From: Nannocystales bacterium
Lineage (GTDB): Bacteria; Myxococcota_A; Polyangia; Nannocystales; Nannocystaceae
Direction: 5' to 3'
NCBI GenBank assembly: GCA_050633305.1
Contig: JBOEGF010000005.1
Coordinates: 427,372 to 491,371 of the forward strand
Length of the DNA stretch: 64,000 nucleotides
The notes beneath the pieces were generated by a model that worked only from the letters and a program-made list of their open reading frames with translations, made no database searches and was not told the origin of the DNA. The position numbers and the translations under genes are program-made. Shown here piece by piece: positions 7,360 through 13,131 of this stretch (positions within the stretch are counted from its first letter, which is position 1; every line of letters starts with the position of its first letter).

Positions 7360-7527
7360 GTGGTTTCGAAGGTCCTTGCGGCGATCGCTATCTTCGCAGT
7401 CGCGGCGCGCGTGTTCGTGCGCCGCGACTCCGAGATCGCGCGACGCTTCCGGATCTTCGTCAACGTCAGCCTACTGGCCATCCTGGTCCTGTACGCGACC
7501 CGGCTCGTTCAGCTCTACGTGATCTAG
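7360..7527 (+). CDS. Small two-helix membrane protein
   Basis: 55 aa with two hydrophobic segments; TGcTACGCT -10-like element 6 nt before the GTG. Confidence 0.6.
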   Translation: MVSKVLAAIAIFAVAARVFVRRDSEIARRFRIFVNVSLLAILVLYATRLVQLYVI

Positions 7528-7581
7528 GCTCTCGGCGCTGTCGGCCGGGCATGTCTAGTGCTTCTTGGGGCACTCACGCGG

Positions 7582-8340
7582 CTACTCCGCGAACCGGTGT
7601 ACCGGGACCTCCCGATGTAGCCACGGTAGATACCCGTACCGCGCCTCGAGGTCCTCGCCCTCGGGCGGCATCCAGCTGGCCACGACGACTCCGCTGTCGA
7701 GCCCGAGTTGCTCCGCGGGGTCGGAGGGGTTGGAGCGAAACTGCGCGAACTCCAGGTCGCGAAGATGCGGAGAGGCTGCAAGCGCCTCCGCCGACGCTAT
7801 TGTCAGGTGGTTGTCCGCAACGGACAGCCAGCGAAGGTTCGCGGCGTGCGGCGAGTCGGCGACCAGCTGTAGGTGGAGGTCGTGCAGGCCGCAGCCGTCC
7901 ATCCGCAGGGTGCGAATCTTGGCCAGAGCGGCCGAATCGGCGAGGGCCTCATCGACATCTCGTACGGCGCTCAGATCCAGATGCTGCACGGGTGCGAGGG
8001 CGTGGATCTCATCGGCGTGGTTGACGAAGTTCGACGCACTCAGCCTGATGAGTCCGACGAACCCTCGCAAAAACAGAAAACCGTCGATCCAAGCGTCGAT
8101 CCCTTGCGTCCAGACGGAGCCATAGGTGTCCAAAAGCTCCTGGATGCGTTGCCGATTGCTGAGCGAGGCGGGGTTCCTTCGGTCCAGCCCGACTCCATCG
8201 AGCTGTAGGCGAATCAGCTCGCCCCGCGATGTCCAGCTCGGGTCGGTCAGCGCGTCGCACCAAGCCGCATAGTCGAGCCGGGGCGCGTCCTCATCCGGAG
8301 ACGCGAGGACCGCCGCGAGTAGTTCTGCCTCATCTGCCAT
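7582..8340 (-). CDS. TIGR02996 domain protein with LRR-like repeats (putative immunity protein)
   Basis: N-terminal LLAAVLASPDEDAPRLDYAAW...RGELIRLQ, FLRGFV, then LxxLxL repeats. Confidence 0.8.
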   Translation of the reverse strand: MADEAELLAAVLASPDEDAPRLDYAAWCDALTDPSWTSRGELIRLQLDGVGLDRRNPASLSNRQRIQELLDTYGSVWTQGIDAWIDGFLFLRGFVGLIRLSASNFVNHADEIHALAPVQHLDLSAVRDVDEALADSAALAKIRTLRMDGCGLHDLHLQLVADSPHAANLRWLSVADNHLTIASAEALAASPHLRDLEFAQFRSNPSDPAEQLGLDSGVVVASWMPPEGEDLEARYGYLPWLHREVPVHRFAE

Positions 8341-8395
8341 TCGTGGTCATCCTTTCCAAGTTCATCATCGACCCGTTTCGTCTGTCTTCCGCGCG

Positions 8396-10708
8396 TCACC
8401 GGTTCGGATAGGAGAACCGGACCTTTCCCTCTCGCACCAGCTTCGCGAGGAACCTCATCGAGTGCTGGGTGTCGCGGGTGTTGACCAGGGCTTGGTACCG
8501 AGCGCTCTCGCTGTACTCGCCAAACTCGGCATCGGGCATCATCGTCACCATCTCCTCCCGGTTGGCCCGAATGTCAGCTGCGAATGTTCCGAATCTCAGC
8601 GTTGCATCTGCAACCGCGCGGCGGCGTCGCCCGACGACCGCGTTGAATCGTCTCCGCCTGATGCCGCTGGCCGCGATGAACGCTTCGCTGGCCCCGCGAG
8701 GCGTCCTCTGTTCCGCTCTGAGCGCAGCGTCTTCCGCCCTGACCCGACCGCTCGCTTCCCTGAGCGCGGCTTCGGCGGCCCTGAGCTCTTCAAGCATGCC
8801 GCGAACGTCCCCGCCTGCGGTGGGAATGCAGACTGCGATCAGCTCGCGGAGGTTCTCGTAGCCATTGAGCTCTTTTCGGAAGAAGACGATGCGCTCAGCG
8901 TAGTCGGGCCGGATGAGGTATTGAACCTCTCGGAGGGTCATCGTGTTGATGTTCCTGTTGTATGTCTCGGGGATTGCTCTCCCTGGGAGGTGGCCAGGCG
9001 TCGGCGGACTCCTGAAGTACCCGTTCGCAACGGCTGTGTTGATCGCACAAATGATGAAGCCGTCCGGCACTGCGCACTTCGGCAACGTGTCGTGGTAGTC
9101 CCACATGGCGGCGGCATCGAGAGCCTCGCCGTTCTGCCAGTCTCCAATCCCCTGACCAGGGTAGTTGTTGCTTGCAGCGCCAAGGATCCGGACGCGGCCG
9201 TTGTCCGCTTGCAACCCGACCATCCGGTTTTCGAGTTGAAGTGGAGCGAAGTTTAGCTGCCTCGCAAATGACTTCGGTTGGCCGAGCGTGTTTGACTGCT
9301 GTCCATTGGGGATGACGAGTCGGCTGTAGAGCCTGGTGGGGTTGGGATCGCCAAGCCCATAGATCACGTTCATCTGGTACTCGCCGCCGTACATCCACCA
9401 TCCGTTCTCCTCGTCCAGGACTCTCTCCTGTTGAAAGAAGTCTCGAATGGTGCCCCGGGCGCCTCCCGAGCTCTGGAGCCGGACATCGACTTTGTTCGAC
9501 TCCTCGTCGAACTCAACCTCGTTGAGTGAGGCGTTCTTTCCCATCCTGCCCTTGACCCCCGCTGGGAAGATGTTGCTTTCTTGGTCAGTCTCCAGGATTC
9601 CTGTGCCGTCGTAGAGGTCGCCAAGTTCGAATCGTTTGCCCAACTCGAAGGGCGGCAGCACCAGTGGGGGATGCGGCGCCCAGTGGGGGTGGCTTTCTGG
9701 GTACTGGAGAAATGTCCTGTTTCGAGGGTTGAGGAGAATTGGCGTCAGACCTGAGCGCCCGAACCAGTCCGCCGGGCAGTCGGCGTCACGGGCCTTCTCT
9801 GCTGCGTTGAGGCCCACGCCCCCACCCGCAGTGACGCAGATTCGTTCGGTGAAGTGCCAACTCACTTCATCGCGAATCGCATCGACGCCGTTCATGACCT
9901 TGCGGTTCTTCTGCTCGTCGGTCCAGTTTTCCGGCGAGATCCATGGAGGGGTTCGTGCCGCGACAATGACGTCGCTTTCATTCGGGGCAGGCTGACCTGC
10001 CGTCGGGAAGACCTGAGGGCGCCCCGGCCCCGTGCAAATGTCGATCTTCGATGCGTAGACCAACTCCGCAGTGCCGGTCGAGGGGTCGTACAGGCACAAG
10101 CGATAGGGGGCCTCGCCCGGCGGGTGGGCGGGCCATGCTCGGTGCGCTTGGACGTTGACCAGGCCGACGACACCGTCCCCACCTTCTTCATTCGCGAAGT
10201 CGCCCTCCGGGAGACCGACCTGGCTCGGACGGCGCTGGATGAGGGCGACCCAGCGTTCTCGGGTTTGTCCCTCGGCGCCCTTGGCTCGCTCGGCCTCCGC
10301 GTCGATCCTGTCTCCAAAGTGCTGGGAGTCTAGGCCGGAGTCTTTCGTTGGCCCCGTCATCATTGCGTCGTTGTCGAAGCCTGGGAAACTCAAGAGGTGG
10401 TTCGGTTGCCCCAACCCGTGCTGGAAGTACTTGGGCCACGGGTTCGGAAACCCGATGTGCATGATCGTCTTGCCTTCGACGCGGTTGTCGTCCGAGCGAT
10501 CCGCCTGCAGTGTCGTGCTGTTGACAACAGCCATGGGTCCCCTTCCGATGATCACGTAATAGACCTCGGGCGGCTGCATGTTGATCGCGTTGACACCGCC
10601 TCCCAGCGCGGCGGCAGCCTGCACTGGAGGCGGGGCCGGCTGGACCGGCTGCGCTGCTTGGTTCCGCTGGAGCTGAGCGAAGATGTTCAGAGGATTAGCT
10701 TGACCCAT
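8396..10708 (-). CDS. 770-aa hypothetical protein with flavoprotein (two dinucleotide-binding folds)-like motifs and ComEA-like HhH region; putative secreted effector
   Basis: YYVIIGRGPMA, IDICTGPG, ICVTAGGGVGLNAAE, LVIPNGQ, VRILGAA; NINTMTLREVQYL...AERIVFFRKELNGYENLREL. Confidence 0.6.
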   Translation of the reverse strand: MGQANPLNIFAQLQRNQAAQPVQPAPPPVQAAAALGGGVNAINMQPPEVYYVIIGRGPMAVVNSTTLQADRSDDNRVEGKTIMHIGFPNPWPKYFQHGLGQPNHLLSFPGFDNDAMMTGPTKDSGLDSQHFGDRIDAEAERAKGAEGQTRERWVALIQRRPSQVGLPEGDFANEEGGDGVVGLVNVQAHRAWPAHPPGEAPYRLCLYDPSTGTAELVYASKIDICTGPGRPQVFPTAGQPAPNESDVIVAARTPPWISPENWTDEQKNRKVMNGVDAIRDEVSWHFTERICVTAGGGVGLNAAEKARDADCPADWFGRSGLTPILLNPRNRTFLQYPESHPHWAPHPPLVLPPFELGKRFELGDLYDGTGILETDQESNIFPAGVKGRMGKNASLNEVEFDEESNKVDVRLQSSGGARGTIRDFFQQERVLDEENGWWMYGGEYQMNVIYGLGDPNPTRLYSRLVIPNGQQSNTLGQPKSFARQLNFAPLQLENRMVGLQADNGRVRILGAASNNYPGQGIGDWQNGEALDAAAMWDYHDTLPKCAVPDGFIICAINTAVANGYFRSPPTPGHLPGRAIPETYNRNINTMTLREVQYLIRPDYAERIVFFRKELNGYENLRELIAVCIPTAGGDVRGMLEELRAAEAALREASGRVRAEDAALRAEQRTPRGASEAFIAASGIRRRRFNAVVGRRRRAVADATLRFGTFAADIRANREEMVTMMPDAEFGEYSESARYQALVNTRDTQHSMRFLAKLVREGKVRFSYPNR

Positions 10709-11492
10709 GTCTTCGAAGCCTTTCGTCGGCGCTGTTTCGCTGCACTCGAGTCAGCCTTGCGTACCGCCGGATCGCGAGCAGCCCGCTGGCGTGGAGGCGC
10801 CCCGCGTGGTCGGTCGGGTTCTCCGCCGTCCGACGCTGCACCGCGCGGGACGCCCAGGGGTGGAACGGGTCCTGGTCGAAGCCGCGACCCAGCAGAAACA
10901 TCAGCATCACCCAGACACCGACACCTGCGTTCGTGGTCAGCCCGTGTGCGTGTGTCAAGGAACGACCGTGTTCGATGAGCTGCTGAACTGCGGGCTCGCC
11001 GAGCAGTTCGTACTTGGGGCGGAACATTAGGCCGAGAAGTTGGTGAAGCCCTGGGTCGTCTTCGCTGTGTGCCGCAATCTCGTCGAAGTCATGGTGGAGC
11101 ACCCACGCCAGTGCCCGTCGGTACAGGGCTCCGTCGGGACCGATCATGGGCTCCATTCGGGCAGCCGAGGTCGCCAGCAGGGCGGCCATGGCGTCTCTGC
11201 GGTTGGCGGCGTTGTGCTTGCGCAGGCTCGCGCCGGCCCACGGTAGCTGCGGGTCTTCGTCGAAATGGACCCCCAGCAAGACCATCAGGCTCACGAAGGC
11301 CGATACGTCGGCCTGCGCGTGAAAACCATGTCTCTGTGCACGCGCAATCCCGATGTCGACGGCCGCACGCGCGCCCGGGTCGGTGAGCACCAAGCAGTGT
11401 TGTGGAAAGTGAACCCAAAGGTCCTCGAGGACCGCCTCGCGCGTCTGGATGTGCTTTGGGGTCCCCGATTGGAGTGCTTCGTGTTGGGTCAT
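10695..11492 (-). CDS. Hypothetical protein with internal duplication, putative effector adaptor/chaperone
   Basis: Two copies of HG..x..LM.LLG..FD.DP..PWA; overlaps the downstream start by 14 nt. Confidence 0.6.
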   Translation of the reverse strand: MTQHEALQSGTPKHIQTREAVLEDLWVHFPQHCLVLTDPGARAAVDIGIARAQRHGFHAQADVSAFVSLMVLLGVHFDEDPQLPWAGASLRKHNAANRRDAMAALLATSAARMEPMIGPDGALYRRALAWVLHHDFDEIAAHSEDDPGLHQLLGLMFRPKYELLGEPAVQQLIEHGRSLTHAHGLTTNAGVGVWVMLMFLLGRGFDQDPFHPWASRAVQRRTAENPTDHAGRLHASGLLAIRRYARLTRVQRNSADERLRRHGSS

Positions 11493-11506
11493 CGGCAGGC
11501 GCTCCG

Positions 11507-12193
11507 CTACGCGTTCCCGGCATGAACGGCCGACAGGGCGGCGACCGTGGCCTGGTCGAGCTCCCCGGTGGGGTCGAGTTCTTGGACCCGCTGAAACCGC
11601 CGCAACGCAGCGGCGGTTGCGTCGTCGAGTGTTCCGTGGGCCTGGCCCTCGTAGTAGCCGAGGTTTGCCAGGCGGGCCTGCGCACCGTCGACGTCTTCGG
11701 TCGGGTTGAGCGTTCGTGGTGAGATGTCGTAGACCCGCTCCTCGTCTCCCTCGCCGACCCGCAAGATGACCTTGGTCAGGTCCGGCGGGACATACACTTC
11801 AACAACTCCGTTCGCGTCTGTCGTCCCGGCAAACGTCTTCCCGCTGTGCTCGAGGGTGTAGTCGAGGTTGGCGAGCGGTTCGTCGCACTCGAGCAGCTGA
11901 AGACGCAGCATCTCCGGTACCCCTTTGAGCTCAAAGCGATGGAGCTTCCCCGTCGGGCAGGTTTCTTCGCGCGGCTTCAGGGGGGGGATCTGCACGATGT
12001 CCCCGGGCTTGAGGACGAAGGGGGTGTCACGCGTGGCCTTGAGTTCCGCGTTGGCGGGGTGGGACCACAGCGACTCCCAGAAAAAGCCGTGTTCGTAGGC
12101 GATGCTCGACATGCACTCGCCTTGTTGGACCGTGTGTTTCTTCGTGGAACTCATCGGGACAGACTTCGTTGGTGTTGCGAAACGACTCGTCAC
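11507..12193 (-). CDS. LysM + transthyretin-like + peptidoglycan-binding domain protein
   Basis: LysM HTVQQGECMSSIA...LKPGDIVQIP; EPLANLDYTL...GTTDANG; PG_binding_1 QARLANLGY...TAAALRRFQ...TGELDQAT; GTGA overlap with the upstream gene (alternative start 12154). Confidence 0.85.
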   Translation of the reverse strand: MTSRFATPTKSVPMSSTKKHTVQQGECMSSIAYEHGFFWESLWSHPANAELKATRDTPFVLKPGDIVQIPPLKPREETCPTGKLHRFELKGVPEMLRLQLLECDEPLANLDYTLEHSGKTFAGTTDANGVVEVYVPPDLTKVILRVGEGDEERVYDISPRTLNPTEDVDGAQARLANLGYYEGQAHGTLDDATAAALRRFQRVQELDPTGELDQATVAALSAVHAGNA

Positions 12194-12732
12194 AGGGGTT
12201 CGGCGTGGACGTAACTCCAGGCCTCGCTGTCGAATTCAGGGAACGACACTTTGCAGGTACCGGCCTTTCGGATTTCCCGAATCTCGGCCCGTCCGTCGTG
12301 GTCGAGGCTGCCGCTGTGGGTTCGGCCGGCGGGGTCCAGGAGGCGATACGCGGCTCCGGCGATGGGTTCGTCCAGGGCGTTGACGAGCTCGAGCACAACG
12401 GCGTGGAGCGGAACTTCGTCCTCGTTGTCGTCCTCGGGGAGCAGCGCGGTGAGGTCGGTCGGTGCGGATGACCCCTTGGCTGACCCCGCGGATGGATGCC
12501 AAGCGACGTACTCGAGCTCCCCGCAGGCGAGGGCTCGCATCGCCTTTTCCGCGATGCGATCACCGGATTCGACCCACGCGTTGAGGAGGTTTGCGAGCGC
12601 TCGGGCGCCCGAAACGGTACTCGCGAACTCGCGGACTTCGAGCTCAACCTGGCGTGGCACATCCACGAATCTCCGGAACGGACTTCCCGAGACTTGGAGG
12701 GCGCCGAACCCGAGTTGCAGGCGTCGAAACAT
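12190..12732 (-). CDS. Hypothetical protein with C-terminal transthyretin-like domain resembling VgrG/PAAR extensions
   Basis: LELVNALDEPIAGAAYRLLDPAG..HSGSLDHDGRAEI...GTCKVSFPEFDSEAW; GAGG upstream of the ATG. Confidence 0.6.
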   Translation of the reverse strand: MFRRLQLGFGALQVSGSPFRRFVDVPRQVELEVREFASTVSGARALANLLNAWVESGDRIAEKAMRALACGELEYVAWHPSAGSAKGSSAPTDLTALLPEDDNEDEVPLHAVVLELVNALDEPIAGAAYRLLDPAGRTHSGSLDHDGRAEIREIRKAGTCKVSFPEFDSEAWSYVHAEPL

Positions 12733-13131
12733 GGAGACCTCACGATGTTTTCGCGCCGCGGACCTCCCAATGTCGCCCCGGTTTCGCCGCGGGCTCGGGG
12801 GGGTCGAGCGGGGTCATAGAAGCGATCAATCGGTCGGATAGGGACGAAGTATTGGCAACGCTGCCGCCGTCATAGGCGACGAGCTCGGCGGCGAAAAGGG
12901 CCGCACGGGTCCATCGGCCTTCACGGCCGTGGGCGGCTTCTGCGGTCCTCGGTAGGAGGTGTCCTGCACATCGGGATTCCGTCTCGATCGAAGAACCCGG
13001 GGCCGGGCGCGCCACACCCTCCAACGGCACTGACCCGTCGCCGTCGCTCGTCCACAAGAGCCTCTCGCGGATGCTGACCTCGCGATGCGTGCCTCGCACC
13101 GTGTCGTGTGTAGAGCCGAAGGAGGCCTACA

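Follow-up and report, generated by a model that had tools for sequence, protein, structure and literature searches.

The toxins known so far to be injected by type VI secretion systems (T6SS) are mostly hydrolases, transferases and pore-formers. LysM and PG_binding_1 domains occur as T6SS co-effector domains, standing alone or fused to VgrG or to the toxin, and bridging of VgrG and toxin by a LysM protein has been demonstrated (Wang et al. 2023, PMC10673891). The C-terminal helical lobe of DUF4123 adaptors binds the effector and can be encoded by a separate gene (PMC11582642), transthyretin-like (TTR) domains serve as internal adaptors of VgrG and PAAR proteins, and Imm-LRR proteins, built of leucine-rich repeats (LRR), are listed next to toxins of type V secretion systems (T5SS; Zhang et al. 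2012, PMC3482391). The subject here is a group of five minus-strand genes (1-5, Table 1) in a 64,000-nucleotide (nt) stretch of DNA from a Nannocystales bacterium (the window, to which all positions refer), encoding in order a TTR protein, a LysM-TTR-PG-binding protein, an adaptor-like protein, a large flavoprotein and a TIGR02996-LRR protein. The group very likely carries T6SS cargo and, taken as a whole, is on balance best read as an orphan cassette that supplies cargo to a T6SS whose genes lie in another part of the genome. Because LysM carriers, split DUF4123 and LRR immunity have all been published, its loading system counts as a variant of something known; what is new is the flavoenzyme cargo.

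The link to type VI secretion is well supported, and its strongest evidence lies in gene fusions. Three VgrG proteins (P0203, P0211 and P0213, out of 13 long matches) carry at their C-terminus the TTR domain of gene 1 and, behind it, the complete gene 2 module, which is the order of genes 1 and 2 in the window; the gene 1 TTR domain follows PAAR in locus L032; and gene 2 is fused N-terminally to gene 4 relatives in L104, L133 and P0134. Eighteen loci with gene 4 relatives (10 of 142 plus 8 of 144 pattern matches) come from hosts that, where named, are Sorangium, Myxococcota and Acidobacteriota. Gene 2 is present in 14 of them, full-length gene 3 in ten, and vgrG, PAAR, DUF2169 or DUF4123 lies inside the fetched stretch in nine, as the original prediction had anticipated for homologous cassettes; since several of these T6SS-marked loci are near-duplicates, they amount to about five or six lineages. 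The injection system that was expected outside the window is also present: in the 11.0-Mb genome (92% complete), matches above cut-off lie at two loci for TssC (C18:771k and C26:79k), with a weak third, and number nine for VgrG and four for PAAR-like proteins, and other T6SS core genes were recognized by eye. A T4 gp19-like tube gene of an extracellular contractile injection system had no match in this 92%-complete genome, but control genomes were equally blank. Among 72 genomes of the taxonomic family, which are kin and not independent samples, the gene 2 profile matches 42 of the 62 that are TssC-positive and none of the ten, mostly small, that are TssC-negative. Orphan vgrG/PAAR-like clusters with kinases also stand on four small contigs of the same genome (G000 contigs C46, C48, C60 and C68), where partitioning- or transposase-like genes, recognized by eye, suggest mobile carriage.

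The cargo of gene 2 varies. In 40 further gene 2 loci, taken from the best matches of the gene 2 search, a co-oriented open reading frame of at least 400 amino acids (aa) follows gene 2 in 25; labeled followers include phospholipase D (PLD), amidase, pesticin plus C39, and protein-arginine deiminase (PAD) plus ubiquitin hydrolase (UCH) enzymes. The expectation of a variable gene 4/5 pair survives only in altered form: genes 3-4-5 move as a fixed unit, and what varies is which unit follows gene 2. Since vgrG lies near gene 2 in just 4 of these 40 loci, orphan placement is the rule. Candidate anti-eukaryote effectors neighbor gene 2 at L079:3171-6725 (the deiminase with ubiquitin hydrolase) and at L108:7333-10959 (an OTU protease). 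In L077, L078, L080, L083, L088, L089 and L098 three genes recur together, coding for a ~290-aa protein, a ~460-aa alpha/beta hydrolase and the gene 2 product, usually with gene 2 last. The closest relatives of gene 2 itself (L069:6128-7459 and L070:5956-7353) stand before a lipase-like protein of 443-465 aa whose acidic N-terminus contains a Cys.

The five genes are an inserted, variable cassette. Their reading frames and spacing are verified, and the co-orientation and tight coupling first described stand in every detail (GTGA overlap at 12190-12193, 14-nt gap, 14-nt overlap, 55-nt gap), as do the unrelated housekeeping genes at the flanks, M3 oligopeptidase F (pepF) on one side and a methyltransferase on the other. 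Alignment of the congener G558 with the window breaks off after 7527 and resumes at 13115. Three of six congeners (G558, G957 and G544) have an empty site, with pepF and the methyltransferase gene at most 750 bases apart, two are uninformative, and the remaining one, G958, carries at the same site gene 1 (54% identity), a gene 2 that has no PG-binding part, and unrelated cargo, in opposite orientation (L137:1-1841, on G958:C593; the cargo there is unlabeled). A conserved 55-aa hydrophobic gene (7360-7527) that follows pepF and is found in congeners marks where the insertion site begins on the left. The gene 4 family is patchy, occurring in 6 of the 72 taxonomic-family genomes and in none of the six congeners; it was not found among 400 more genomes from the phylum sample or among 350 more from the G602 phylum sample. 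Genes 2-5 are present a second time in the same genome (L001:8235-12664, that is G000:C38:151234-155663) at 37-51% identity, gene 4 at 37%, with gene 5 convergent. Four further gene 2 paralogs there stand before an S8 peptidase, an amidase and a C39-ending cluster, and beside an unlabeled 830-aa gene; both TIGR02996 matches of the genome adjoin gene 4. The DNA of gene 4, originally called visibly A/T-rich, is mildly so (62.3% GC, which ranks at the 5.7th percentile among 7,540 crude gene calls), yet the point was overstated: pepF has 62.1%, and GC at third codon positions (0.756) is that of genes 1 and 3, for which reasons an A/T-rich, foreign gene 4 was dropped as a special feature. Searches for a promoter consensus and for a viral relative found none.

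Table 1. Features of the cassette (window positions; residue ranges for gene 4 domains)
Feature	Position	Strand	Description
Gene 1	12190-12732	minus	180 aa; variable N-terminal part and C-terminal TTR beta-sandwich, residues ~108-175
Gene 2	11507-12193	minus	228 aa from GTG, 215 aa from ATG 12154; LysM-TTR-PG_binding_1 carrier, putative co-effector
Gene 3	10695-11492	minus	265 aa; tandem copy of ~125-aa helical domain (FD.DP..PW); putative effector-binding adaptor
Gene 4	8396-10708	minus	770 aa; flavoprotein fold; putative effector
Gene 4, leader	~45 aa		disordered
Gene 4, main domain	residues 47-563		two-dinucleotide-binding flavoprotein
Gene 4, third part	residues 586-626		ComEA-like helix-hairpin-helix
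Gene 4, C-terminal part	residues 635-723		lineage-specific helical hairpin
Gene 5	7582-8340	minus	252 aa; TIGR02996, short LRR and family-specific C-terminal motif; putative immunity protein/inhibitor
Inserted segment	7528-13114		approximate extent, relative to the empty site in congener G558

Family-profile searches of the window proteins place genes 1, 3 and 4 in no family above cut-off. The TTR-like domains proposed for genes 1 and 2 are borne out by profile matches to VgrG tails and by alignment of the two families to each other: the gene 1 family profile matches residues 783-816 of E. coli VgrG 6SJL (E 0.025) and P. aeruginosa VgrG2b 6H56 (E 0.13), the C-terminus of gene 1 aligns with the middle of gene 2 (hhalign probability 95%, E 4e-8), and 5 of 23 gene 1 family members match CarboxypepD_reg and 4 of 23 SpaA prealbumin-like. 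These domains share their beta-sandwich motif with the TTR internal adaptors of VgrG and PAAR (6SJL and 6SK0 of E. coli, 6H56) and, in fused relatives, their position at the VgrG end; they differ in being separate genes and in matching the solved chains weakly. Gene 2 does contain the LysM and PG-binding domains attributed to it (PG_binding_1 E 4.8e-15; LysM weak, E 0.049), but the concept of a stand-alone carrier of this sort had been published before (PMC10673891). Compared by description, gene 2 is like the LysM/PG_binding_1 co-effectors of that paper (Kalk_10460 of Ketobacter alkanivorans) in occurring alone, VgrG-fused and toxin-fused, and in standing directly before variable cargo; it is unlike them in being a fixed module of three domains (LysM, TTR, PG-binding), mostly orphan, in up to 13 copies per genome. 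The paper limits PG_binding_1 to gamma-proteobacteria, and 'myxo' does not occur in its main text; the LysM-TTR-PG-binding architecture may already figure in its supplements.

Gene 3 was called adaptor-like, and as a lead this agrees with its helical domain, which is present twice and is similar to the C-terminal lobe of DUF4123 adaptors. Both halves match the profile of single-domain relatives, of which profile they are themselves a part. Its single-copy form occurs directly before large genes and, in locus L027, after a short DUF4123 gene. The Atlas offers a structural look-alike in a 282-aa DUF4123 protein, in the part outside the DUF4123 domain (TM 0.35, likewise a lead only). Pfam gave no match to gene 3, hence none to PF13503, the N-terminal lobe of DUF4123; its halves as a profile found nothing in PDB, and a search for longer fused forms, weak evidence in any case, found none. 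Set against the published description of the split DUF4123 pair TecT/co-TecT (PMC11582642), gene 3 shares a helical domain encoded alone before large cargo and, through the L027 relative, the company of DUF4123; it is unlike co-TecT in being a tandem double, in a cassette without the DUF4123 N-terminal lobe. Three single-domain relatives (G000:C40:57493-60242, C19:56927-59982 and L007:7463-11140) each adjoin or directly precede a different unlabeled gene of 786-898 aa.

Gene 4 was taken for an unknown enzyme; its AlphaFold2 model (48 relatives; pLDDT 83.7, pTM 0.85) and the structural matches of that model instead reveal a recognizable FAD/NAD(P)H flavoprotein fold, and it is almost certainly a flavoenzyme. 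Residues 47-563 match bacillithiol disulfide reductase Bdr (7A7B) with Z 17.5 and a root-mean-square deviation of 2.9 over 300 residues, thioredoxin reductase with Z 16.9, a type II flavin monooxygenase with Z 15.8 and PvdA with Z 14.4 over 324 residues. With these flavoproteins (Bdr/YpdA, thioredoxin reductase, type II flavin monooxygenases, PvdA/SidA) gene 4 shares the fold over ~300-330 residues (Z 14-17.5), both the FAD and the NAD(P)H Rossmann domain with their glycine motifs, a D-x-C-T-G linker and a Trp-Gly-Arg after the second strand; it is set apart by identities of 11-14%, by ~200 extra residues, by lack of CxxC, by the C-terminal helix-hairpin-helix and variable leader, by T6SS context and by a dedicated LRR partner. 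The family comprises 340 clusters at 50% identity. In an alignment of 139 long members G55, G57, W91, Q101, D223 and G227 are invariant, and C225, G229, E304, R329, R507, N562, N588 and R611 are conserved in at least 96%; W91 and Q101 we take to resemble FAD-site residues of N-hydroxylases, and Arg318, which follows the second Rossmann strand in 73 members, presumably points to NADPH as cofactor, by analogy with class B monooxygenases. Thioredoxin reductase itself was rejected as an identity: CxxC is found anywhere in just 5 of the 139 and missing from 134. Gene 4 matched nothing in Pfam or NCBIfam, class B flavin monooxygenase and N-hydroxylase families included, and a single-sequence PDB search gave nothing significant; one distant relative matches Pyr_redox_2 (E 2.4e-5), one of 50 distant members matches ArsO (E 0.006), the profile of distant relatives matches NfnI and the helix-hairpin-helix of EEPD1 (each E 2.9e-5), and 22 of 48 members match HHH_3 below cut-off. 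At L135:6775-9194 and L136:2708-5173 the gene of a distant flavoprotein that lacks the helix-hairpin-helix converges on an LRR gene that lacks TIGR02996.

The assignment of gene 5 to TIGR02996/LRR proteins is upheld by a TIGR02996 score of 37.7 bits (cut-off 29.05) and by its predicted structure, in which a helical TIGR02996 domain precedes the LRR (pLDDT 92, best Z 11.2); its sequence has no evident signal peptide. It lies beside gene 4 in 17 of the 18 related loci, the remaining one being a 1.9-kb contig. Of 26 gene 5 profile matches in the taxonomic family ten span the family-specific C-terminus, and eight of these adjoin a gene 4 relative or lie within 4.5 kb of one. Pairwise identities of genes 4 and 5 are correlated (Spearman 0.93 over 20 pairs, leaving out the partial loci L024, L031, L037, L134 and L136), and over 16 loci the correlation is 0.94 for genes 4 and 5 vs 0.58 for genes 4 and 2. 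What fails is the supposition that gene 5 occupies the usual immunity position: co-orientation is exceptional, gene 5 being convergent in 16 of 17 related loci, and inverted in L035, which nevertheless has the flanks of the window. A 2,114-nt contig from another run (~95% identity) covers 7507-9617 without a joint and thereby supports co-orientation here. No inverted repeats were found around gene 5, and no inversion joint in four contig sets, so that phase-variable inversion was rejected as unsupported. Like Imm-LRR (PMC3482391) and TIGR02996 repeat-companion proteins, gene 5 is an LRR protein next to a putative toxin, and like the latter it scores over the TIGR02996 cut-off; unlike Imm-LRR, its partner is a flavoprotein and its gene usually convergent. 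A TIR-domain gene lies 0.6 kb from gene 5 at L034:13010-14212.

The mechanism that we infer, from secretion and binding through chemistry to toxicity and immunity, would run as follows. Genes 1 and 2 would correspond to the C-terminal extension of a VgrG protein, with TTR first and LysM-TTR-PG-binding second, detached as separate genes; their products would hold the cargo on a VgrG or PAAR spike, and gene 3, as effector-binding adaptor, would present the flavoenzyme to that spike. The cargo, gene 4, would be an enzyme that depends on FAD and NAD(P)H and has the thioredoxin-reductase/class B flavin monooxygenase fold without the redox CxxC. In the cytoplasm of the target its flavin would be reduced by the NADPH of the target and then react with oxygen, draining reductant and releasing H2O2, oxygenating a cellular target, or both; uncoupled N-hydroxylases can release H2O2 (PMC6151521). 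The helix-hairpin-helix may keep the enzyme near nucleic acid, and gene 5, a cytoplasmic LRR protein, would bind gene 4 and silence it in the producer. That gene 4 is toxic is probable; that gene 5 is protective is somewhat less so, if still likely.

Several observations weigh against this scheme. The TTR domains, as noted, match solved VgrG tails weakly, and vgrG is rarely near gene 2; in 15 of the 40 gene 2 loci what comes next is a short or distant gene or one in the opposite orientation. Nine of the 18 gene 4 loci have no T6SS marker (several are short contigs), the carrier genome G605 gave no TssC match, and no loader genes stand beside the distant flavoprotein-LRR pairs of L135 and L136. 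The helix-hairpin-helix is under the Pfam cut-off and its hairpin appears shortened. The best structural matches of gene 4, Bdr and thioredoxin reductase, are reductases, that is, protective enzymes. The prevailing convergence of gene 5 counts here too, as do the two of ten full-length gene 5 matches without gene 4 nearby and the loci L029, L030, L032 and L109, where gene 5 follows a TTR gene in a place where cargo could equally sit. Co-divergence of genes 4 and 5 shows, at the level of sequence, tight linkage and not binding.

It is unlikely that the pair is instead directed at eukaryotes, with gene 4 delivered into fungi or protists, where the host would acylate its N-terminus and it would oxidize a membrane-proximal target, and with gene 5 a second injected LRR effector or a regulator and not an immunity protein. 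The leader of gene 4 is highly variable among relatives, and MG with Cys within the next three residues starts 31 of 157 long relatives vs 3 of 4,274 Met-starting crude gene calls of the own genome, start calls differing between the two counts; many of these read MGCCCG, which we take to resemble eukaryotic myristoylation/palmitoylation signals. Gene 4 of the window keeps Gly2 but has no Cys, however, and the motif is missing from the other 126 relatives. The UCH and OTU domains among other gene 2 neighbors, the four loci in which gene 5 comes after TTR genes, and weak matches of gene 5 to the GALA and XopAC LRRs also favor eukaryotic targets, but the tight pairing of genes 4 and 5 suits an inhibitor better than an independent effector, and even an anti-eukaryote NADPH oxidase would require self-protection. 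Quite unlikely, too, is T6SS cargo that is not toxic, gene 4 being a secreted reductase or detoxifying enzyme for redox defense or prey digestion and gene 5 its chaperone. The disulfide reductases that head the structural matches would fit, and a T6SS-secreted catalase has been reported (PMC5363993); against this stand the near-universal lack of CxxC, a need for cytoplasmic NAD(P)H, the amidases, phospholipases and peptidases that fill the gene 4 slot elsewhere, and the patchy, inserted character of gene 4. A toxin-antitoxin or defense pair that acts inside the producer and hitch-hikes with T6SS accessory genes would account for convergent gene 4-5 pairs without loader genes (L028, L038, L135 and L136) and for the many distant gene 4 relatives with almost no N-terminal extension, but is very unlikely given the three gene 2-gene 4 fusions, operon coupling to genes 2-3 in 10 of the 18 loci and the failure of PADLOC to match any of the five proteins.

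Among the papers listed by searches of the open-access literature there was no flavoenzyme T6SS toxin, and a full-text search of the same literature found no paper on or naming TIGR02996; 'FAD', 'flavin' and 'oxidase' are absent from 300,000 of the 357,715 characters of PMC3482391. The gene 4 family has no Pfam or NCBIfam model and is therefore missed by annotation. A broader proposal is tentative and somewhat doubtful: that gene 4, through its many clusters, founds a widespread class of injected redox toxins, turning NADPH into H2O2 near nucleic acid or oxygenating macromolecules, with one branch made cross-kingdom by its acylation signal, with TIGR02996-LRR proteins as inhibitors and with gene 2 as a general effector marker. 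If it is true, the TIGR02996 domain family gains its first function, as inhibitors of flavoenzyme toxins, and the LysM-TTR-PG-binding gene becomes a general marker for hundreds of uncharacterized myxobacterial effectors. The pairing of genes 4 and 5 offers a testable function for TIGR02996-LRR proteins, and the gene 2 module, as a marker of orphan effectors in both predatory and social bacteria, lends itself to direct mining. A flavin-dependent oxidase or monooxygenase as payload would, if true, be a new killing chemistry for type VI secretion.

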